From Planctomycetota bacterium (GTDB taxonomy: Bacteria; Planctomycetota; UBA8108; SXIK01), in assembly GCA_965223265.1 (NCBI GenBank), contig OZ244999.1:7168001-7232000 (forward strand): DNA of 64,000 nt. Direction: 5' to 3'. The notes under the pieces were generated by a model. That model was not told the DNA's origin, did not search any database, and saw only the letters and a program-made list of their open reading frames with translations. Numbering within the stretch: the stretch's first letter is position 1; the number at the start of each line of letters is the position of its first letter. Made by a program: the position numbers and the translations under genes. Positions 1 through 25,493 of this stretch are shown here, in pieces.

Positions 1-163
1 TTCTGGCGCCGCAACTTTGTGACCTGTCGCAGACGGCCTCGCATGCCGCGCAACGCGTTCGTCACGTCTAGGAGATAGCTCATTCGAGTGGAGACTGCAC
101 GACACGCGCCGAGCGCAGCGATTCGTTGCCCTCGCTTGTGGCCGCGTTGACCCAACCGCTCAT

Positions 164-16513: not shown

Positions 16514-18070
16514 ATGAAATCAGCATGGCAGGAGCTGTCGAGATGTTTGAACGCGTACTGCTGCGAGGGAGACGCCGGAAGCTGGCCTCGCGCTGAACGG
16601 CTACTGATTCAACTGCCGTTAGATGGCTCGTCACCGCTCGAACGAGTTCACCGCAGCGCACAGTTCCTTGCCTCGTTTGGGCACACCGACGAGGCTCATC
16701 GAGTCACCGAGCTGCACCGAAAGCATCATCAAAGGATTCGATTCGCCGCGCCGGGAAGTGCTGGGTGCGAAGTGCAGCGGACGACAATCTACGATGCGAT
16801 CCACCTGGGGATCCGTATGCAGCAGCAGCGCGGCAATCCAGGCCCCTCCGTCTCCTGGAGTCGCCTTGGCGGTATCGGTTGGGTGGAAAACCTTCGCCTC
16901 GCCCTGGCTCTTCGCACTCACGAGCACAGCCGCGTGCTCGAGTGTCTACGGTCGAAAGCCCATCTCACCAACTACGACATGGCCTGCAGGCTCTGCTTGT
17001 TGGCAAGGCACTACTTCCTCCGCGGACATCTGTCGCGTGGGCTCGGCCTCATACGGTCCGCGTACCGTCGATTAGCGAAGGATGAGTCATGCGACGCTGA
17101 GCTCCGCCGCACCGAATGCTGTGGACTGCAGGGCATGATCGCGCTTCAGGAGGGCAAGCTCGATCTCGCTGAGGACTTGTTCCGCACGACGATCCGCATG
17201 GCGACCGAGCTCAAGCACGAACAACAGATCGCCTACTATCGCCAAGAGTTGGCCGTGTCCTATTCGCGTCGTGGAGACTTCGACGAGGCTCGGGCACTCA
17301 TGTGCGACCTACTCGATCACTTGAACGCCACGGAGCCAAGGAGCGACGCGCAAAGGGTTCGACGTGCCGCGATCGAAATTTCAGCAGCGCAAATGGCGCT
17401 CGACCGTGGTGACGTCGAAGCTGCGCGACAGCACTATCGCGTCGCCCACGAAGCGTTCGCCGCGACGACCGAACCAGTGATCCAAGGTCACCTGGCTCTC
17501 CTTCGCGCGCGACTCCTCAAGGAGGAGGGTGCTGCGAGGCTCCCCCACGCGCTCGCAGAATTCCAGGCCGCTGAACATCTCTTCGGCGGTTTCGGCGACG
17601 GCCTGATCCTCGGACTCTTCCGCGTCTCTCTGCACCGGGCACACGCGCTGCTGAGGTTCGGAGAATTAGACGCGGCGATGACTGACGTGCTCCGCTGTCT
17701 CGAATACGCGCGCGAGCGCCGCTACTTTCCAGCGCGAGCCGCCGGATTGCTGCTGAAGACTCAACTGCTGCTGCAAAAACAAGGCGGTGCGAAAGTCGAC
17801 AGCATGTACGAGGAAGTGCTGAGGGGTCTCGGCGCCATCGCAAATCCACGCATCCTCTTTCGAGTCGTCGCCAACCTTTACCTGCACACCTGGGATCGTC
17901 AGGACGACCTCGAGCTAACCCAATACCACCTCGACCAGCTCCACGAGCTCAAGCGTTTTTTCGACGCGCGATCCTACGAACGCCTCTACACCCGCTACGT
18001 CACCATGCCGGTGCTGCATCGCGCGCTGGCGGAGGGATTCGGCGAGACGCCGATCGAGGTGGCGGAGTGA
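16514..18070 (+). CDS. Tetratricopeptide-repeat-like helical protein
   Basis: Repeated TPR-like helices (GMIALQEGKLDLAEDLF, LAVSYSRRGDFDEARAL, AQMALDRGDVEAARQHY, LLRFGELDAAM). Confidence 0.7.
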   Translation: MKSAWQELSRCLNAYCCEGDAGSWPRAERLLIQLPLDGSSPLERVHRSAQFLASFGHTDEAHRVTELHRKHHQRIRFAAPGSAGCEVQRTTIYDAIHLGIRMQQQRGNPGPSVSWSRLGGIGWVENLRLALALRTHEHSRVLECLRSKAHLTNYDMACRLCLLARHYFLRGHLSRGLGLIRSAYRRLAKDESCDAELRRTECCGLQGMIALQEGKLDLAEDLFRTTIRMATELKHEQQIAYYRQELAVSYSRRGDFDEARALMCDLLDHLNATEPRSDAQRVRRAAIEISAAQMALDRGDVEAARQHYRVAHEAFAATTEPVIQGHLALLRARLLKEEGAARLPHALAEFQAAEHLFGGFGDGLILGLFRVSLHRAHALLRFGELDAAMTDVLRCLEYARERRYFPARAAGLLLKTQLLLQKQGGAKVDSMYEEVLRGLGAIANPRILFRVVANLYLHTWDRQDDLELTQYHLDQLHELKRFFDARSYERLYTRYVTMPVLHRALAEGFGETPIEVAE

Positions 18071-18113
18071 CCGGGAACGACGCGTAGCGGGGCGACTGTC
18101 GCCGGGGGCGGTT

Positions 18114-18420
18114 TTGCGTTTGCGTTTGCGTGGGAGTGCACGCTTCTTCAGCGTAGCAGGCACACGGCGTGTGCCGTCCGGCCTTGTCGGCGTGCGCGTC
18201 GGCCGTTCCCGTGGGTGTGGGAGTCCGTGTGGGAGGGGGAGTGGGAGGGGGAGTGGGAGGGGGAGTGGGAGGGGGAGTCCGTGTGGGAGTGGGTGCGCGC
18301 CTCTTCAACGTGGCAGGCACACGCCGTGTGCCGTCCGGCCTTGTCGGCGTGCGCGTCGGCCGTTCCCGTGGGTGTGGGAGGCCGTGTGGGAGGCCGTGTG
18401 GGAGGCCGTGTGGGTTGGGG
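18114..18420 (+). repeat. Composite repeat: two ~157-bp-period units, each a GTAG-type REP palindrome plus G-rich hexamer tracts
   Basis: GT(A/G)GCAGGCACACG(G/C)CGTGTGCCGTCCGGCCTTGTCGGCGTGCGCGTCGGCCGTTCCCGTGGGTGTGGGA starts at 18153 and 18310; (GGGAGG GGGAGT)n and (GGGAGG CCGTGT)n tracts follow. Confidence 0.85.
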
Positions 18421-18574
18421 TCACCGTACGGCGGCGGTCTTGTCGAGCGTACGCGGTGCTCGCGGGTGTGAAGTCGAGCACACAATGCACCTCCAACCTT
18501 CCGCTGTCGTAAGTCCTTTCGGTGTAAGCCGACGTAATCTGACGAATCTTTGATACAACCCGGTCGATTTACCT

Positions 18575-20665
18575 TCATAGGTCGTCGAAGAGCGTCATCT
18601 GGTTCTTCGCGCAGCCCTCCTTAGGCGGGAATCGACCCGTCGCCTTGAGCGTCGCCACGAGGCTCCGGACTCCTGGGGAGTCCAGCTCGTGGCGAGAGAC
18701 GCGCCAGGGGGCGAACTCGGCGACTTGGTTTTTCCTGATCAATCCTCGTTCGACAAGCGTACGTAATGCTATCGAGGAAACTCCTAGGTACTTGCTGGCG
18801 CCGTTCATCGACAACGCATCATCGGAGGACTGCGCTGAATTGATACCGTTGTGTTTGCGAAATTCGGTCACCTTGTCTTTGGTCCACCGTGTGGTCGTGA
18901 GCCTTCGTCTGTTAAGCACTAAGGCAATCTCGCTGTCACTATGCGCCGCGGCGCTGAGCCGCTTGATCAGCTCGAGCACCGAAACTTCCCTTGATGCCTT
19001 CGGAGAGGGGAATCGCAACAGCTCGGAGGTAGAGTGTACGCCGCCCTTCCAGTGAATCGTCAATTCCAGGCGGCGACTTTGCCGATTGGATCCAACGAGC
19101 TCGCCGCTCTCCTTGATCATGATCTCGTGAATCGCTGCTCGCAGCAGAGTCTTCTTCAGCCTGACATCAATCGTCGATCGCCAGACCAACTGGAAGTTCC
19201 GTGCGAGAGTCTCGAGACGTTTTCGCTCTGCGACAGTCAACGTCAATCTCGACGACTGCTGCTTGTGGAGTGTCTCCTTTGCCTCGGCAAGCCGCTGAAG
19301 CTTGTCGTTGAGACGTTTCTCGAGGTTGTCCGCAACAAGGCGATTCCTCGGATCGCACGCGTCGAACTGTTCGAATGCATGACTGGCGGCGTACTGCGCA
19401 GCCTCGATCTGCTGCTTCGCGTAGTTCAACTCGTCGGCTCGGCTCTTCTCGATCTGCTCGAACGCCCTGGTCGCAGCCTCGATCCCCGAGGAGTCAAGCG
19501 CTCGACACAACTGCTGCGCGACGATCGGGTCAACGCGACATGCCCCAACAGAGAGACAAATGCGTGAGTTCCCCTTTCGTGTGCCGTCGCAGTAATAGAA
19601 GGCCTTCTCGTATCGGTACCGGACCTTCAGCTGATCGCCACAGTGACCACAACGCAACATCCCCGCCAGGAGAGCCTGGCCTTCCCGCGCGGCTCCTCGG
19701 TTGCCGTCGAGCCCTCTTCGCGGTCGATTCTGCGATAGCTTCTTCAAGTTCGCTTCGTACTCTGACCAATCGATGTAGGCTGGGTGATGGTCACGGATCA
19801 TCACCCGAGCTTCACCAGGATCTTGCCGACGTTCACGCTGTTTGACCAGCCTCCCATCGGCGATCTTGCTTGTCGTCCTTGAACGACCCCAAGCGTAGGC
19901 TCCAGCATAGGTCGGATTGACCAGGAGGTTGTGTAGCGACTTGGCCGACGGCACCGCCCACCTGACCGTCTTGTTGCCCAAGCCCCGACTCGGAAACTCG
20001 ATCCCCGCGTCTCGGTAATGCAATGCGAGCTGTCGGGCACTACTGGAGCCACGGAAGTCCTGAAAGACACGGCGGATCGCGGTACGGATTCTCTCGTCGG
20101 GATCGAAGACAATCTCAGTGTCGTCGTAGACGTAGCCGATCGGTAACTGAATCCACAGCTCACCTCGCTTCGCTTTCGCCTGCTGACCTAGGCGCAACCG
20201 CAAGCGAATCGTCGCAAGCTCGGCTTCTGAGATCGAGCCACGGATGCCGATCAACAGTCTGTCGTTAGAGAGCGACAGATCGTAGACCTGCTCGGTGTCC
20301 GCGATCAGCGTATTGAAGTGCTGACAAAGCTCCATCAGTCGCGCCCAGTCCACCGAATTCCTCGACAGTCGGGAAATCTCGAGACAGAAGATAATCCCGA
20401 CTTCCCCGGCAATGACCCAGCTCTTCAGTTTCTCGAAGCCGGGGCGATCGACGAATCCAGAAGCCGACTCGCCGAGATCGTCCTCGATGAGAATCGGCTC
20501 GCGCCAGCCAAGATCGACCGCCTTGTGCCTCAGTTCGCGTTGCAGGCGCGTGCTCTCTTCGTTGTTCTTCACCTGTGTTGGCGACGATTGACGAATGTAT
20601 ACTACTGCCGCGCGCCTGAGGTGCTCGGTAGTGACGCCACCTGGATGATTGCTATCGATCCTCAT
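18575..20665 (-). CDS. Large serine recombinase (resolvase catalytic domain, recombinase domain, zinc ribbon, C-terminal HTH)
   Basis: AVVYIRQSS (catalytic Ser), DDLGESASG..DRPGF, EISRLSRN, CGHCG...YYC...C zinc ribbon, coiled coil, HTH LSMNGASKYLGVS; GGAGG RBS before ATG 20665. Confidence 0.93.
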   Translation of the reverse strand: MRIDSNHPGGVTTEHLRRAAVVYIRQSSPTQVKNNEESTRLQRELRHKAVDLGWREPILIEDDLGESASGFVDRPGFEKLKSWVIAGEVGIIFCLEISRLSRNSVDWARLMELCQHFNTLIADTEQVYDLSLSNDRLLIGIRGSISEAELATIRLRLRLGQQAKAKRGELWIQLPIGYVYDDTEIVFDPDERIRTAIRRVFQDFRGSSSARQLALHYRDAGIEFPSRGLGNKTVRWAVPSAKSLHNLLVNPTYAGAYAWGRSRTTSKIADGRLVKQRERRQDPGEARVMIRDHHPAYIDWSEYEANLKKLSQNRPRRGLDGNRGAAREGQALLAGMLRCGHCGDQLKVRYRYEKAFYYCDGTRKGNSRICLSVGACRVDPIVAQQLCRALDSSGIEAATRAFEQIEKSRADELNYAKQQIEAAQYAASHAFEQFDACDPRNRLVADNLEKRLNDKLQRLAEAKETLHKQQSSRLTLTVAERKRLETLARNFQLVWRSTIDVRLKKTLLRAAIHEIMIKESGELVGSNRQSRRLELTIHWKGGVHSTSELLRFPSPKASREVSVLELIKRLSAAAHSDSEIALVLNRRRLTTTRWTKDKVTEFRKHNGINSAQSSDDALSMNGASKYLGVSSIALRTLVERGLIRKNQVAEFAPWRVSRHELDSPGVRSLVATLKATGRFPPKEGCAKNQMTLFDDL

Positions 20666-20819
20666 CGTTCTCGCCCTCCACACCGTGGTTCTCGATGATC
20701 GCCTGCAGGAGAATCGCCACTGCCCGAGCGATTTCCTCCCGCTCCTTCGCGCTCAGCACTGCGAGCACGCTTTGATCTTCCGGCGGCAAGAACGGTAGAG
20801 TAAGCTGCGTCCACACCAT
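20652..20819 (-). CDS. Small accessory protein of the recombinase element (55 aa)
   Basis: AAGGAGGAGG RBS before ATG 20819; MVWTQLTLPFL...LSAKEREEIARAVAILLQAII; overlaps the recombinase start. Confidence 0.6.
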   Translation of the reverse strand: MVWTQLTLPFLPPEDQSVLAVLSAKEREEIARAVAILLQAIIENHGVEGENDEDR

Positions 20820-21111
20820 CGTCCTCCTCCTTGGTTCGAGTTGGTTCTGAGTCAAGGATGGACGATGGTGCTTCTTGGAGTCGAGACTCTACGATCGCCG
20901 CAATGACGAGGAGCTCCTCCACGTCGATGTGGGGCGATCTACACAGCTCCACCCACATAGCGCTCTCCTCGGTCATCCAGCACGGCACCAAGAGCTGGCG
21001 CTTCTCGATTTGAACCAAGTAGCAGGGCGGTTCTCTCGAGGTCCGCCGAACGACCGGCAGAGAGCGTCCCGCAAGGGGGTGGTAGGGATAGAAGACCGTT
21101 ACGGTCGTCAA
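20662..21111 (-). CDS. Y4bD/Y4pK (DUF5372)-like accessory protein; 5' end apparently completed only on the excised circle
   Basis: VTVFYPYHPLAGRSL...LVPCWMT motif, recalled as typical of ORFs beside this recombinase class; only a TTG without RBS here, and the frame is open up to the element end at 21138; stop overlaps the recombinase ATG. Confidence 0.7.
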   Translation of the reverse strand: MTTVTVFYPYHPLAGRSLPVVRRTSREPPCYLVQIEKRQLLVPCWMTEESAMWVELCRSPHIDVEELLVIAAIVESRLQEAPSSILDSEPTRTKEEDDGVDAAYSTVLAAGRSKRARSAEREGAGGNRSGSGDSPAGDHREPRCGGRER

Positions 21112-21139
21112 ACCAACATCAGTGTGGGCTACCCGTGGT

Positions 21140-21220
21140 CAAGGGTGCCCTCGCTGCGCTCGGCGCTGCGCGCCCTTGACACCCACTCCGCTCCGCGTTG
21201 GGGGGTGGAGTACCGCCGCC
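21140..21220 (+). promoter_or_regulatory. Right half of the structured leader hairpin of four-helix-bundle gene 1 (left half at 18430-18469)
   Basis: CAAGGGTGCCCTCGCTGCGCTCGGCGCT is identical to the copy-2 leader; arms CCCTTGACACCC (21173-21184) and ACCGCCGCC (21212-21220) pair with partners in, or reaching into, 18430-18469. Confidence 0.7.
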
Positions 21221-21265
21221 CGGACGCGGCGGAGCTGTTCACTCTACGCTCTGCGGAGGTCTCCC

Positions 21266-21589
21266 ATGCGCTTCATCGCTCTTGATGTCAGTCTCGGTTT
21301 GATTCGCGACTTGCGGGCTCCATTGCTGCGACTTCGGAGGCTTGATCCAGATCTCCATCGGCAGATTCGGCGGGCTGCTTCTTCCGTCGCGCTCAATCTC
21401 TCGGAGGGTGCCGAGCGCGCTGGAAAGGATCGGCTGCACCTCTATCGCGTGGCGCGCGGCAGTGCCCGGGAAGTCGAGACTGCCCTGCAGCTCTCGGTGG
21501 CCTGGGGCGATCTCAAGACCGAAGACGTCTCAGTGCCTCTGCAGACCCTCGATCGACTCCTGGCTCTTCTCAGCGGACTCACGCGCTGA
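21266..21589 (+). CDS. Four-helix-bundle protein (TIGR02436 / 23S-IVS / Avd-like family), 107 aa
   Basis: GGAGG RBS, ATG 21266; QIRRAASSVALNLSEG...ARGSAREVETAL family signature. Confidence 0.9.
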   Translation: MRFIALDVSLGLIRDLRAPLLRLRRLDPDLHRQIRRAASSVALNLSEGAERAGKDRLHLYRVARGSAREVETALQLSVAWGDLKTEDVSVPLQTLDRLLALLSGLTR

Positions 21590-21601
21590 GCGAGGCGCCC
21601 A

Positions 21602-21629
21602 AGCGCCCGCTACTTTCGTAGCGGGCGCT
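21602..21629 (+). terminator. 12-bp perfect hairpin after four-helix-bundle gene 1 (no U-tract)
   Basis: AGCGCCCGCTAC-TTTC-GTAGCGGGCGCT. Confidence 0.5.
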
Positions 21630-21647
21630 GCTCACGGCGCTTCCGAC

Positions 21648-21870
21648 TTCTGTATCTGGCCCTGTCTCCGTCATCCGAGTCCGTCTCTGGCTCTGCATCT
21701 GTATCTGTGTCTGTCGCTGACTCTGTCATCTGCTTCTGTATCTCTATCCGTCATCCGTCTCTGATTCCGTCTCTGTCCCCAACGTTGCAAAAGAGACGCG
21801 CCTTAAGACCGTGCGCGATTGCGATTGAGTGAGAGTTTGCGTGTACGTCTGCGTGTGGGTGTGCGTGGGC
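21648..21870 (+). repeat. Degenerate hexamer-phased arrays (TCTGNN/TCCGNN, then NNGYGT-like)
   Basis: tctgta tctggc cctgtc tccgtc... over 21648-21780 and tgcgtg tacgtc tgcgtg tgggtg tgcgtg over ~21820-21870. Confidence 0.7.
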
Positions 21871-22067
21871 GAGGGGAACACGGCACACCGTCAACCTCAC
21901 CAAACGTGAGGTCCGCCACGACGTCCCTCAACTGCCGATCGAACCTCAGGGAAAGGGTTTCTGAGCCCTTCCTGCGAAAACTTATGCAACTGTCGGGTCT
22001 GTCTCTGCCTCCGGTTCCGCCTCAAACCCGCCGCGCGAAAAAGCACGGCGGGCCCAAGACCGCAACC

Positions 22068-22391
22068 TCAGCGCGTCAGCTTCCAAAGCATCGCCTGCAG
22101 CTCGTCGATGTCCGCAAGCACCGAAGCTGTCTCCTGCGCATCGACGTAGCCCCAAGCCTCAGCAACACAAAGCGCCGTACGCACCTCTTCGGCACTGCCT
22201 GAGGCAACACGCCAGAGATGCCCGCGGTCACGACCAGAGCGCCGATTGCCCTCGCCCAAATTCAGCGCCACGGAGGACCCCGCGTCGCGCAGCTGAGCGG
22301 CAAGCTTCGAGTCGTGACGACGCACACGCGAGACAAGCGGACGCAACTGACGAACGATACCAACAGAGTGATCCAAAGCGAGAAAGCCCAT
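22068..22391 (-). CDS. Four-helix-bundle protein (TIGR02436 / Avd-like family), 107 aa, paralog of 21266-21589
   Basis: ATG 22391 (MGFLALD); QLRDAGSSVALNLGEG...ASGSAEEVRTAL; same length as copy 1 and colinear with it. Confidence 0.9.
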   Translation of the reverse strand: MGFLALDHSVGIVRQLRPLVSRVRRHDSKLAAQLRDAGSSVALNLGEGNRRSGRDRGHLWRVASGSAEEVRTALCVAEAWGYVDAQETASVLADIDELQAMLWKLTR

Positions 22392-22441
22392 GAGAAGACT
22401 CCGGTCAACCGGTTGAGTGAAACTCTCGCCGCACGCCCGAC

Positions 22442-22576
22442 GCGGCGGCGTTTCACCCCCGCCAACGGAAGCAGAGCCGGGTGCGGTCACTCTCAGAAGG
22501 CGCGAAGCGCCGAGCGCAGCGAGGGCACCCTTGAGGCCGGCTCTGCTTCCGTTACGCTCGACAATACCGCCGCCGC
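22442..22576 (-). promoter_or_regulatory. Intact nested hairpin leader of four-helix-bundle gene 2; candidate ssDNA (Frpo-like) promoter or structured RNA
   Basis: Outer stem 22442-22450/22568-22576 (9 bp); inner perfect 17-bp stem 22464-22480/22537-22553; TTGAGG (22531) -16 nt- TACGCT (22553) on the + strand. Confidence 0.65.
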
Positions 22577-22599
22577 AAACGCCCCTTGGCGGCACACCT

Positions 22600-22923
22600 C
22601 TTCTCTGCTTCTGTCTCTGCTTCTGTCTCTGCTTCTGTCTCTGCTTCTGTCTCTGCTTCTGTCTCTGCTTCTGTCTCTGCTTCTGTCTCTGCTTCTGTCT
22701 CTGCTTCTGTCTCTGCTTCTGTCTCTGCTTCTGTCTCTGATTCTGTCTCTGATTCTGTCTCTGATTCTGTCTCTGATTCTGTCTCTGCTTCTGTCTCTGC
22801 TTCTGTCTCTGCTTCTGTCTCTGCTTCTGTCTCTGCTTCTGTCTCTGATTCTGTCTCTGATTCTGTCTCTGATTCTGTCTCTGATTCTGTCTCTGATTCT
22901 GTCTCTGATTCTGTCTCTGATTC
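22600..22923 (+). repeat. 12-bp tandem repeat, ~27 units, TCTCTG(C/A)TTCTG
   Basis: Near-perfect array in blocks of about 11 C-type, 4 A-type, 5 C-type and 7 A-type units. Confidence 0.95.
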
Positions 22924-23099
22924 GCCACCGCTCGCCGTTTCGCTGCGGTCGCAGGGTGGAAGGCCTCTTCGCACGTGTTAGCATGGGCGCGTCCCCGAAT
23001 GTTCGGGAGCGGGCGCGGCTTTCCAAGCCAAAACGCATCGCTGTGACTCGTAGCCGCTGAACGCAAGTTCGACGTTCGTCTTCCAGCAAGCGACTTTTT

Positions 23100-25493
23100 A
23101 TGCGTCTCAAGTTTCCCCCAAGCCTTCTCGCCGCCGCGGTGCTGCTTCTCATGGGAGCGCTGGCTGCGGCGGAGTCTGCACCCCCTTCCCAGGCGCCTCG
23201 ACCGCTCCTGACACCGTTCGTGGAGACCTACTGCCAGCAGTGCCACGACGCAACCGGCCGGACCGCAGGGCTCGCCCTTGACGAGCTGCTTTCCGCCCCA
23301 ATGGAGGAGCATGTCGCGGAGTGGGAGTCGGTCGTCCGCAAACTCACAACGCGTCAGATGCCACCGCAGGATATGCCTCGGCCGGACGAAACGAGCTACG
23401 AGGCGATCTTGCTCCTGCTCACCTCTGAACTCGACGCAGCCGCCGAGCGTCAGCCGCGGACGGGACGTACGGAGTCACTGCGCCGTTTGAGCCGCACGGA
23501 ATACCACAACGCGATTCGCGATCTGCTGGGTTTGGAGGTGGACGTCAGCACGCTTGTTCCCGGCGACGAGTCGAGCCACGGGTTCGATCACATCACGGTG
23601 ACCGGTCTCAGCCCGATGCTGTTAAGTCGCTACATTTCCGCAGCGCAGAGAATCAGCCGCTTGGCAGTAGGCAACCCAGGGTGGGGAACTGGAGGCGACA
23701 CATTTCGAATTCGACCCGATATCACGCAAGACAACCACCGTGTGGAAGGGCTGCCTCTCGGAACACGAGGCGGCACGTTGATCCGCTACAACTTCCCGCA
23801 AGACGGCGAATACGACGTCCAGGTTTGGTTGATGCGAGATCGGAACGATGAAATCGAAGGCCTTCGAGACAAACACGAATTGGAAGTGCTGCTCGACCGT
23901 GAGCGCAAGGCGACATTCACCGTCGCGCCTGCGCCGCGCGGCCAAAGCGACCGCATGGTCGATGCGCATCTCAAAGCTCGACTCACGGTTCAGGCCGGGC
24001 CACACGACTTAGGCGTCACGTTCGTCAAGAAGCCCTCCTCGCTGCTGGAAAGCGAACGGCAGCCATTGAATGTGCACTACAACTACTACCGACACCCGCG
24101 TCTCGGACCCGCCGTCTACCAAGTCTCGGTCATCGGTCCTTTTCAGGCGAGCGGCCCGGGTGACACGCCGAGTCGCAGGCGCATCTTCGCGTGTCGGCCG
24201 GTCGGTTCCGAGGACGAAGACGCCTGCGCTCGTCGCATCCTGACGCGGCTGTTGCGTCGTGCCTATCGCCGGCCGGTAACTGAAGACGACCTCGAGACGC
24301 CGATGAAGTTCTTCTCGGCTGGCCGCGCGGGCGGATTCGACGTGGGAATCGAGCGTGCGCTAGCCGCGATCCTGGTGAATCCCAATTTTCTGTTCCGCAC
24401 AGAACGGCAGCCGGCGAACGCACGAGCGAACCGCCCCTACCGGATCAGTGATCTGGAAATGGCGTCTCGGTTGTCTTTCTTCTTATGGAGCAGCATTCCA
24501 GACGACGAGCTGCTACAGGTGGCGACACGTCAAGAGTTGAGCCGCGGCGAAGTGCTCGAGCAGCAGGTGCGAAGGATGCTCGTGGATGAACGGTCCCGGT
24601 CACTCGTGACGAACTTCGCCGACCAGTGGCTCTATCTGCGAAATCTCGCCTCGTTTGTGCCGGACGCGCGCCTTTATCCGGACTTCGGTCATAACCTACG
24701 TGACGCCTTTCGGCGGGAAACGGAGTCACTGTTCGAGCAAATGATGCGCGAGGACCAAAGCGTCCTGGTTTTGCTCGATTCACCTGCGACCTATTTGAAT
24801 GAACGACTCGCTCGGCACTATGGAATTCCGCATGTCTATGGCAGCCGGTTCCGGCGCGTGTTGTTGGATGAACGAAGCCGGCGCGGCGGAATCCTGCGGC
24901 ACGGCAGCATTTTGTCGGTCACGTCCTACGCAACGCGCACCTCCCCAGTGATTCGAGGTCAATGGATCCTTGAAAACCTGCTGGGCACACCGCCACCCCC
25001 GCCGCCAGCGAACGTTCCAGATCTGGAGGATCATACGGTCGCGGCTCACCTCACGGTACGCGAGCGTCTGGCTCGACATCGCGCCGACGCCGCATGCGCG
25101 CCTTGTCACGACGTGATCGATCCGGTCGGCTTCGGGCTCGAGAACTTCGATGCCGTCGGGCGCTGGCGGGAATCGGAATTGGGCCAACCAGTCGACGCTT
25201 CAGGCGGGTTGCCGGATGGAAGTGAATTCGACGGGATCAGCGGGCTGGAACGCGCGCTGCTCGAACGTCCTGAGTTGTTCGTCCAGACCATGACGGAGAA
25301 ACTGATGACTTTCGCGCTCGGACGCGGCGTCGAGTACTACGACGCGCCAGCGGTTCGCCGCATCCTTCGCCGTGCCAGGCGAGCGAACTATCGTTTCTCT
25401 TCTCTGATTCTAGGAATCGTCAACAGCACACCTTTTCAGATGAGGATGGCGGCTGACCAGGATGCCGAGAGCCCTGAAGACGCCGAGGGCTGA
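23100..25493 (+). CDS. DUF1592/DUF1588/DUF1587/DUF1595/DUF1585 planctomycete cytochrome-c-type protein
   Basis: Signal peptide, CQQCH and CAPCH heme motifs, LRRLSRTEYHNAIRDL, ASRLSFFLWSSIPD, TSPVIRGQWIL, ENFDAVGRWR. Confidence 0.92.
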   Translation: MRLKFPPSLLAAAVLLLMGALAAAESAPPSQAPRPLLTPFVETYCQQCHDATGRTAGLALDELLSAPMEEHVAEWESVVRKLTTRQMPPQDMPRPDETSYEAILLLLTSELDAAAERQPRTGRTESLRRLSRTEYHNAIRDLLGLEVDVSTLVPGDESSHGFDHITVTGLSPMLLSRYISAAQRISRLAVGNPGWGTGGDTFRIRPDITQDNHRVEGLPLGTRGGTLIRYNFPQDGEYDVQVWLMRDRNDEIEGLRDKHELEVLLDRERKATFTVAPAPRGQSDRMVDAHLKARLTVQAGPHDLGVTFVKKPSSLLESERQPLNVHYNYYRHPRLGPAVYQVSVIGPFQASGPGDTPSRRRIFACRPVGSEDEDACARRILTRLLRRAYRRPVTEDDLETPMKFFSAGRAGGFDVGIERALAAILVNPNFLFRTERQPANARANRPYRISDLEMASRLSFFLWSSIPDDELLQVATRQELSRGEVLEQQVRRMLVDERSRSLVTNFADQWLYLRNLASFVPDARLYPDFGHNLRDAFRRETESLFEQMMREDQSVLVLLDSPATYLNERLARHYGIPHVYGSRFRRVLLDERSRRGGILRHGSILSVTSYATRTSPVIRGQWILENLLGTPPPPPPANVPDLEDHTVAAHLTVRERLARHRADAACAPCHDVIDPVGFGLENFDAVGRWRESELGQPVDASGGLPDGSEFDGISGLERALLERPELFVQTMTEKLMTFALGRGVEYYDAPAVRRILRRARRANYRFSSLILGIVNSTPFQMRMAADQDAESPEDAEG

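Follow-up and report, generated by a model that had tools for sequence, protein, structure and literature searches.

What is a long, conserved hairpin doing in front of a protein gene that occurs again and again in one genome? This question is raised by a 64-kb stretch of a Planctomycetota chromosome (hereafter the window; positions 7,168,001-7,232,000 of G000, the source genome, a single contig of 9.18 Mb). The window carries two convergent PF05635 genes (23S_rRNA_IVP, TIGR02436-type), each encoding 107 aa, and a hairpin of about 140 nt lies ahead of each. The original prediction interpreted this hairpin as a promoter that works on single-stranded DNA (ssDNA), in the manner of the Frpo/ssi promoters of plasmids. 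We found that the hairpin family is real, strongly structured, absent from Rfam 15 and undescribed in the literature searched, and that the hairpin module belongs to a dispersed cassette consisting of a short tandem array, the hairpin, the PF05635 gene and a G+C-rich inverted repeat after the stop codon. Its structure, covariation, copy number, linkage to the gene and the strand favored by its wobble pairs were observed directly. Our reading, which we put forward tentatively and regard as possible but short of probable, is that the hairpin is a strand-specific module of a mobile cassette and would act as a 5' leader RNA.

Two leaders share a covarying hairpin

The two leaders were predicted to share two sequence blocks, and this was borne out. 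The 22-nt block GGCGGCGGTMTTGTCGAGCGTA occurs exactly twice in the window, at 18430-18451 (+) and 22553-22574 (-), and the 29-mer TCAAGGGTGCCCTCGCTGCGCTCGGCGCT likewise, at 21139-21167 (+) and 22506-22534 (-); for neither did any of 100 shuffles yield a match. Copy 1 had been described as a hairpin to be rejoined from separate parts, which proved correct: its 5' half (18430-18468) lies 2.7 kb upstream of the segment first described, parted from the rest by a 2,670-bp insertion. The distance from the 3' arm of P1 to the ATG is 50 nt in copy 2 and 45 nt in copy 1, in agreement with the 45-50 nt anticipated, and the long stem of copy 2 indeed consists of 16-17 perfect pairs (22537-22552 with 22465-22480). 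In order, the fold comprises P1 (GGCGGCGG/CCGCCGCC in the window), an asymmetric internal loop, P2, P3 (TCAAGGGTG/CGCCCTTGA) and the apex.

We then evaluated the fold in 82 copies aligned with a covariance model, 78 of them distinct, which came from G000, G007, other metagenome-assembled genomes (MAGs) and metagenomes. Pairing was kept in 96.3% of the cells of the 78 distinct copies, compared with 78.8% in shuffled alignments and 36-65% when the partners were slid. Double-sided changes were present in 21 of the 30 pairs (324 cells), including all eight pairs of P1 and all eight of P2, and none of 500 shuffles reached any of these measures. This alignment was fitted to the model and is biased toward the structure; in an unfitted MAFFT/RNAalifold alignment of 27 copies, double changes were found in 12 of 39 pairs. 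The covariation of the stems that had been claimed from the two window copies therefore holds across the family.

The apex is a short hairpin of the form GGCG(N)C-loop-G(N)CGCC, which was perfect in all 64 copies matched by the search pattern (the remaining 14 of the 78 distinct copies fall outside the pattern and were not evaluated); its fifth pair is C-G, G-C or A-T. Adjoining it is an 18-nt, near-invariant bulge, GUGCCCUCGCUNCGCUCG. Across families, the loops and the bulge are conserved while the stems vary.

No Rfam 15 model matched the window at the gathering score or 18 related loci at E values up to 0.1, and on 22350-22650 three microRNA models alone appeared, with E values of 2.7-6. 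ARAGORN found no tRNA or tmRNA. Among the papers listed for the names of the gene family, none concerned the leaders of these genes by title or abstract, and the apex strings retrieved no publication.

Three explanations for the conserved apex were rejected. Complementarity to, or mimicry of, rRNA by the apex 21-mer gave duplex energies no better than those of shuffled loops (66 and 92 of 200 did equally well with 16S and 23S, respectively), and the longest words common to the 21-mer and 16S/23S rRNA are 8-10 nt. A pseudoknot between the bulge and the 3' internal loop was not favored either, the mean longest complementary run being 3.87 as against 3.80 in shuffles, of which 154 of 500 reached the observed value. 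One variable base of the apex would be synonymous in one frame per strand; a protein-coding apex was nevertheless rejected by reasoning, because no other synonymous site varies and the lengths of the adjacent loops differ by non-multiples of three.

The hairpin accompanies PF05635 genes throughout the source genome

A covariance model (R1) built here, as had been suggested together with the promoter model, recovered 40 copies in G000, and a search for the 29-mer core with up to 5 mismatches (most copies having 0-2) recovered 39. The genome has 38 PF05635 matches, and 36 of them are preceded on their own strand by a hairpin at a distance below 450 nt. Viewed from the hairpin, the start codon of a PF05635-type gene lies 119-143 nt after the core in 36 of the 39 cores, and a Shine-Dalgarno-like GGAG stands 7-9 nt before the ATG, just past the hairpin. 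Two subtypes can be told apart: in type A, represented by window copy 2, P2 is perfect, variable in sequence and 16-17 bp long, and in type B, represented by window copy 1, P2 contains a conserved internal loop.

A convergent A/B pair like that of the window is present at seven loci as a unit of about 1.8 kb with unrelated flanks. Two of these units, 7450403-7451792 and 8370685-8372075, differ from the others in that the spacer of about 220 bp between their two genes has the reverse orientation, as seen against 9141535-9142884. Tandem arrays, mostly of 6-7-nt units, are found in the 300 nt preceding the hairpin in 42 of 47 gene-linked copies, which represent six lineages, versus 2 of 29 gene-less copies; the gene-linked copies may share descent and are not independent events. 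Arrays border the cassettes on both sides, in the window also at 21640-21790, and their units include hexamers such as CAAACG, CCCACG and GGAGAC and 12-mers such as CTGCTTCTGTCT. The short palindrome GGCACACGNCGTGTGCC, in some copies after TCCAAAGTAGCA, recurs around the cassettes (window 18150-18175 and 18310-18340; G000 4592500-4593400). In a different setting, 600 and 400 nt before G000 position 404462, a 15-nt apex variant, CCTCGCTGCGCTCGG, is contained in a tandem duplication of 200 nt that precedes one cassette.

According to a crude heuristic based on G+C content at third codon positions (GC3), the nearest upstream open reading frame (ORF) runs in the same direction in 14 of the 24 copies that could be scored, which makes read-through transcription into the hairpin possible. 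The upstream neighbor is divergent in the other 10, and some of these neighbors are repeat-derived ORFs.

Wobble pairs point to the gene-sense strand

Read on the gene-sense strand, the 30 pairs contain 237 cells with G.U or U.G and 40 with A.C or C.A; in the gene-linked subset the numbers are 147 and 22. One position of P2 alternates among G.U (46), A-U (24) and G-C (5), and one of P1 among U.G (14), U-A (14) and C-G (26). In P3, one U.G pair was found in all of the 78 copies, and its G was not part of the search pattern. Since the wobbles of the sense strand become C.A mismatches in a folded template strand, the fold under selection is that of the gene-sense strand, either as RNA or as sense ssDNA.

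A promoter-like motif is kept in gene-linked copies

The strings reported on the antisense arms were found as claimed, TTGAGG-16-TACGCT in copy 2 (22531-22558, +) and TTGACA-15-TACGCT in the rejoined copy 1. The original prediction was to fall if a larger alignment showed no conservation of TTGA/TACGCT; among gene-linked copies, the promoter-like motif withstood this check. The form TTGAC-15/16-(T)AnnnT, with A at position 2 and T at position 6 of the second hexamer, is shared by all 42 gene-linked hairpins that could be scored, which come from six lineages (26/26 in G000, 10/10 in G007, 3/3 in Co_bin.297, and one each in L213, L218 and G021), but by only 8 of 31 gene-less hairpins, none of which has T at position 1. 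The conservation of TTGA says little, as it lies within stem P3. The presence of the motif in all gene-linked copies and its rarity in gene-less ones indicate that it is constrained where the gene and the array are present, which fits a hairpin promoter, a divergent promoter in duplex DNA, or a loop motif of the RNA of the cassette lineage.

The first of these is the mechanism of the original prediction, which we widened to include cruciforms. The polymerase would bind the hairpin as a mimic of the open complex, with the -10 hexamer in the unpaired loop, and proceed by way of P1 to the gene, on a template of ssDNA or on a cruciform extruded from supercoiled DNA. In addition to the distribution of the motif between gene-linked and gene-less copies, two observations agree with this mechanism. 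The motif is the only recurrent promoter-like one within -400..+130, and when the template strand is folded as DNA, the long stem persists and TACGCT lies at the edge of an unpaired stretch (z -4.15). In some high-G+C bacteria TAnnnT is, moreover, the usual form of the -10 hexamer. Against it, the wobble pairs favor the opposite strand. A standard sigma-70 rule (at least 4/6 per hexamer, at least 9/12 overall, spacer 16-18) was satisfied by none of 70 scorable copies, and a promoter scan of 17900-23200 returned no sites; the spacer of 15-16 nt is short, the -10-like hexamer reaches TAnnnT at best (3-4 of 6), and there is no A+T-rich stretch beyond the -35-like hexamer. The mechanism gives no role to the apex, the most conserved part of the hairpin, and does not account for a hairpin family that also exists without a gene. 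Nor was a conjugative or plasmid context found: a blastn search ('distant') of the hairpin against 72,556 plasmid records gave no match, and the exact apex pattern had no match in viral contigs. The count of 42/42 may also reflect shared descent. Taken together, these observations make a hairpin promoter unlikely in our estimate.

The comparison with Frpo/ssi leads to a similar result. In PMC11541004, these elements are presented as single-strand promoters of plasmid leading regions (citing Masai & Arai 1997), located in the leading region of a conjugative element beside the origin of transfer (oriT), where the orientation of the genes allows them to be transcribed from the T-strand; their defining features there are a stem with -35 and -10 hexamers near TTGACA/TATAAT and an A+T-rich UP element. 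The present element resembles them in being a long imperfect hairpin just upstream of a gene, with an arm that carries -35-like and -10-like hexamers and, as a folded template, points to the gene. It differs in that its 39-40 copies are chromosomal and dispersed on both strands of a 9.18-Mb genome (in which oriT and relaxase genes were not searched), its wobble pairs favor the other strand, it is also found without a gene, and it matches no plasmid. Its hexamers are weak, and because its apex is G+C-rich it has no A+T-rich UP element. The Frpo reading is thus partly supported as a motif, by its geometry and its presence in gene-linked copies, and unsupported as a mechanism, given the strand of the wobble pairs, the sigma-70 rule, the gene-less copies and the chromosomal context.

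The same TTGAC-15/16-TAnnnT motif could instead be an ordinary promoter in duplex DNA, firing away from the gene into the array or a neighboring gene. Motif and upstream arrays both accompany the gene-linked copies, and in copy 2 the motif points to the array and to the PSCyt/DUF1592 gene at 23100. Yet the upstream neighbor is divergent in only the 10 of 24 copies mentioned above, no function is known for transcripts of the array, and the covarying stems would be left without explanation. We consider this divergent promoter highly improbable.

Gene-less copies and spread across genomes

Of the 21 genomes of the order, the covariance model detects the hairpin in two, G000 and a member of another family, G007; of 151 sampled genomes of the phylum it also detects it in two, namely G000 and G021 with one 50-bit match. 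The G021 copy, found by the model only, has a shorter, diverged bulge, and it keeps P2 and P3, with arrays upstream and a PF05635-type gene downstream. PF05635 genes themselves occur in 5 of the 21 genomes of the order, so the hairpin is not general to the gene family.

An exact scan for the apex 21-mer, with one genome per species, gave 63 loci, and a 27-nt scan of metagenomes gave 40. Full hairpins by the model were found in MAGs labeled Acidobacteriota, Vicinamibacterales, Thermoanaerobaculia and Hydrogenedentota, in one labeled as a beta-proteobacterium, and in the unclassified Co_bin.297; several other 21-mer matches (e.g. Streptomyces, Labedella, Achromobacter) appear to be due to chance or to coding sequence. 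Because the loci of both scans were picked by exact apex match, the invariance of the apex among them is circular; that the apex is common to G000 and G007 despite different stems is not. Among all these loci, a gene of the family lies downstream only at four loci of Co_bin.297 and at L213 and L218, and 31 distinct hairpin copies in other genomes and metagenomes are gene-less. For the flanks of gene-less copies, the GC3 heuristic gave 8 co-oriented and 3 opposed upstream neighbors with 29 unscorable, a result too crude to rely on.

In many copies without a gene, from soil metagenomes and MAGs of Thermoanaerobaculia, another conserved segment, about 35 nt long (...CCTCCGGCGGGGGCTCCGGA...), follows P1 (L185, L188, L198, L206, L211, L212, L214, L220, L223, L121 and L168), and in these the element may extend further. 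Imperfect palindromes of Desulfoluna and some Proteobacteria, with attC-box-like ends and located between small unrelated ORFs, have the 21-mer as their bulge; 'attC-like' is here a by-eye reading of the sequence ends and not the result of an attC model. Such palindromes are found at L126, L133, L144, L155, L166, L172, L182 and L183, and also at L149, L150, L171, L175, L202 and L203, and the ORF families beside them include DUF6155, DUF2262, DUF3024 and RibD_C.

Replication orientation and a possible role as folded DNA

The GC skew of G000 places the origin near 7.96 Mb, where a DnaA-family gene is located (7,963,028), and the terminus near 3.54 Mb. In type A, the sense strand of all 17 cores is on the leading-strand sequence, a rule also followed by an additional type-A copy found by the model only (7739168-7739320, -). 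In type B, 4 are leading and 17 lagging. Long ORFs of the genome show no bias (888 leading vs 847 lagging). These orientations bear on the hairpin promoter. Its template strand is the leading-strand template in 17/17 type-A copies, which argues against exposure at the replication fork as the trigger for copy 2, and the lagging-strand template in 17/21 type-B copies; the opposite bias of the two types implies that fork exposure cannot be a general trigger.

The bias of type A is a hint that the spread of the cassette involves a step at the level of DNA. One explanation of this kind is that the hairpin is a recombination or mobility site, through which the cassette is moved or captured as folded ssDNA, as with attC, the ends of IS200/IS605 elements, or repetitive extragenic palindromes (REPs) and their associated tyrosine transposases (RAYTs); the bulge would then be the recognition site of a recombinase. 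The element is multi-copy, dispersed and patchy in distribution, yet its exact apex is present in several other phyla; the sense hairpin of type A lies on the lagging-strand template throughout, against an even baseline of long ORFs; the 21-mer bulge recurs in the palindromes of Desulfoluna and some Proteobacteria described above; and seven convergent units sit in different flanks. On the other hand, type B has the opposite orientation, so that no strand is consistently exposed, the window hairpins do not carry the R''/R' boxes, and the attC-like character of the palindromes is a reading of their ends. Neither an empty site nor a target duplication was found; in the empty-site comparison, the relatives of the flanking TPR gene in G001 and G002 are only 31-35% identical and the PSCyt neighbor is not beside them. 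No candidate recombinase is linked to the hairpins, although an integron integrase was not sought. The one Y1_Tnp match of the genome (PF01797, 4206881) is weak (27.3 bits) and more than 380 kb away from the nearest hairpin core at 4592760, and none of the four identical RVT_1 genes of G000 is beside a hairpin. A folded recombination site is, for these reasons, doubtful.

These elements could also be combined: the hairpin may be the cis site of a new mobile cassette that is handled as folded single-stranded or cruciform DNA, the bulge being the recognition site of an enzyme, and the fold of gene-linked copies may in addition be a promoter mimic that switches the gene on upon unwinding. This would explain the replication-strand bias, the TAnnnT that accompanies the gene and the lack of an ordinary promoter. 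We judge this combination rather improbable as well.

A serine-recombinase element is inserted in the hairpin

The 2,670-bp insertion that splits copy 1 is present six times in G000 with the same ends (2581250, 6779130 and 7186469, +; 8600523, 8838070 and 8982258, -). All six elements are located at one site, the P2/P3 junction of a type-B hairpin (...G|TGAAGTCGAG ... CCCGTGG|TCAAG). The element encodes a large serine recombinase (Table 1) and two small ORFs without a Pfam match. It is a site-specific, insertion sequence-like element that has the hairpin as its attachment site, and its crossover would be at a GT dinucleotide.

A hairpin that attracts mobile DNA could be nothing but a selfish palindromic repeat of the REP type or akin to miniature inverted-repeat transposable elements (MITEs), with no role in gene expression, its pairing being kept by template switching between the arms and its sequence serving only as a landing site for other mobile DNA. 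The six elements at one position of the hairpin are in keeping with this, as are the gene-less copies of many genomes and an IS110-family transposase gene about 70 nt from copy L167. A selfish repeat does not, in contrast, predict that the distance to the start codon and the orientation are fixed in seven groups (six lineages, with types A and B of G000 counted apart), that loops and bulge are conserved across families while the stems change, or that the wobble positions are strand-specific. We therefore hold a purely selfish origin to be very unlikely.

Table 1. Coordinates of the cassette components and the inserted element in the window
Feature	Position	Strand	Remarks
Copy-1 four-helix-bundle gene, type B, 107 aa, PF05635	21266..21589	+	E 1.8e-13; GGAGG at 21255-21259
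Copy-2 four-helix-bundle gene, type A, 107 aa, PF05635	22391-22068 (22068..22391)	-	E 2.2e-14; GGAG at 22399-22402
Copy-1 (type B) hairpin, 5' half	18430..18468	+	resembles intact type-B copies elsewhere in the genome
Copy-1 5'-half parts	P1 5' arm 18430-18437; 5' internal loop 18438-18451; P2 5' arm 18452-18468	+	
Copy-1 hairpin, 3' part	21139..21220	+	
Copy-1 P3 and apex	P3 5' arm 21139-21147; apex 21148-21170; P3 3' arm 21171-21179	+	
Copy-1 3' side	P2 3' arm 21180-21197; G-rich 3' internal loop 21198-21212; P1 3' arm 21213-21220	+	
Copy-2 (type A) hairpin, intact	22442..22576	-	covariance model score 124.8 bits
Copy-2 helices	P1 22567-22576 with 22442-22450; P2 22537-22552 with 22465-22480; P3 5' arm 22526-22534	-	
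Copy-2 loops	5' loop 22553-22566; apex 22503-22525; 3' loop 22451-22464	-	
Copy-2 variant P3 3' arm and 13 extra nt	22480-22502	-	
Promoter-like string TTGAGG-16-TACGCT, strand opposite the copy-2 gene	22531..22558	+	from the sequence
G+C-rich inverted repeat after the copy-1 stop codon	21603..21628	+	terminator-like by eye; absent from the output of the terminator scan
12-nt tandem repeats (CTGCTTCTGTCT and CTGATTCTGTCT) adjoining the copy-2 hairpin on its upstream side	22586..22920	.	belongs to the repeated unit
G-rich short tandem repeats (GGGAGT/GGGAGG; GTGTGGGAGGCC) upstream of the copy-1 hairpin	18200..18425	.	from the sequence
Inserted element, 2,670 bp, splitting the copy-1 hairpin at the P2/P3 junction	18469..21138	.	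six identical-ended genome copies
Large serine recombinase gene, 702 aa	18575-20683	-	Resolvase, Recombinase and Zn_ribbon_recom domains

Comparison with other structured elements

PF05635 is the gene family carried by intervening sequences of 23S rRNA, which are inserted in a helix of the rRNA gene and form their stem from the two ends of the insert. Long stems and short tandem repeats next to a small gene, and a patchy, seemingly mobile distribution, are further points in common. In our case the gene is not enclosed by the hairpin, whose two arms both precede it, and the apex is conserved; the sole 23S gene of the genome, at 2007925-2010917, covers all 2,925 positions of the model in 2,993 nt and contains no PF05635 match. 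With the attC sites of integrons, the hairpin has in common an imperfect palindrome with strand-specific unpaired bases whose sequence varies while pairing is kept. The attC boxes (R''/L'' ... L'/R') are RYYYAAC ... GTTRRRY and close the palindrome at the 3' end of a cassette, and by eye neither the full boxes nor AAC...GTT are conserved in type A, type B or G007; the hairpin is, furthermore, 5' of a gene at a fixed distance, and its copies are dispersed instead of arrayed. As with REPs and bacterial interspersed mosaic elements (BIMEs), these are high-copy intergenic palindromes into which a site-specific element inserts. They differ in their 140 nt, three helices and conserved loops and in an apex common to several phyla, which REPs are not known to share; unlike REPs with RAYTs, they have only the single distant Y1_Tnp match mentioned above. 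Finally, the covarying helices and conserved loops directly before a ribosome-binding site resemble the structured 5' leaders of Rfam, among which about 40 copies per genome and the existence of gene-less copies would be unusual for a cis-regulator.

A tentative leader RNA and its significance

We return to the leader RNA that we tentatively favor. The fold appears to have been selected on the gene-sense strand, and the hairpin would be transcribed as the 5' leader of the cassette mRNA. Its long duplex may then be a site for processing, stability or translation control, comparable to the RNase III stems of the 23S rRNA intervening sequences that carry PF05635 genes, and the bulge would bind a conserved factor. 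Both the transcription of the hairpin and the role of its RNA are what we infer from the comparisons above.

Several observations weigh against this proposal. The near-invariant bulge is left unexplained by a leader RNA, as are the replication-strand bias of type A and the two loop positions (A...T on the sense strand; TAnnnT on the opposite one) that are kept only in gene-linked copies. A sense-strand promoter-like motif is wanting within 400 nt upstream in 27 of 28 copies, in which TTGNNN-16..18-TANNNT had no match within -400..+130. G.T pairs are tolerated in folded DNA, so the wobble evidence fits ssDNA of the sense strand too. An alternative downstream hairpin, a possible switch, appeared in single-sequence folds of most G000 and G007 copies, but it is weakly supported (z -3.2 to +0.9) and was rejected as a candidate: z values were -2.3 to -3.2 in type A, -1.4 to -1.9 in type B, -0.3 to -1.1 in G007, +0.9 in L218 and -1.1 in L213, and RNAalifold on a MAFFT alignment gave 3 pairs only.

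PF05635/TIGR02436 'four helix bundle' genes are very common, and neither their spread nor their expression has been explained. Here, an expanded set of them (38 matches in one genome) is tied to a defined, covarying nucleic-acid element without an entry in Rfam. This element offers tractable handles: the recurrence of an exact apex in several phyla, its use as the specific landing site of a serine-recombinase element, one subtype that is perfectly biased with respect to replication direction, and a promoter-like motif on the 'wrong' strand in gene-linked copies. If the motif works from a folded template, hairpin promoters would extend from the leading regions of plasmids to chromosomal cassettes; if the hairpin is a leader RNA, it would represent a new, high-copy family of structured RNAs.

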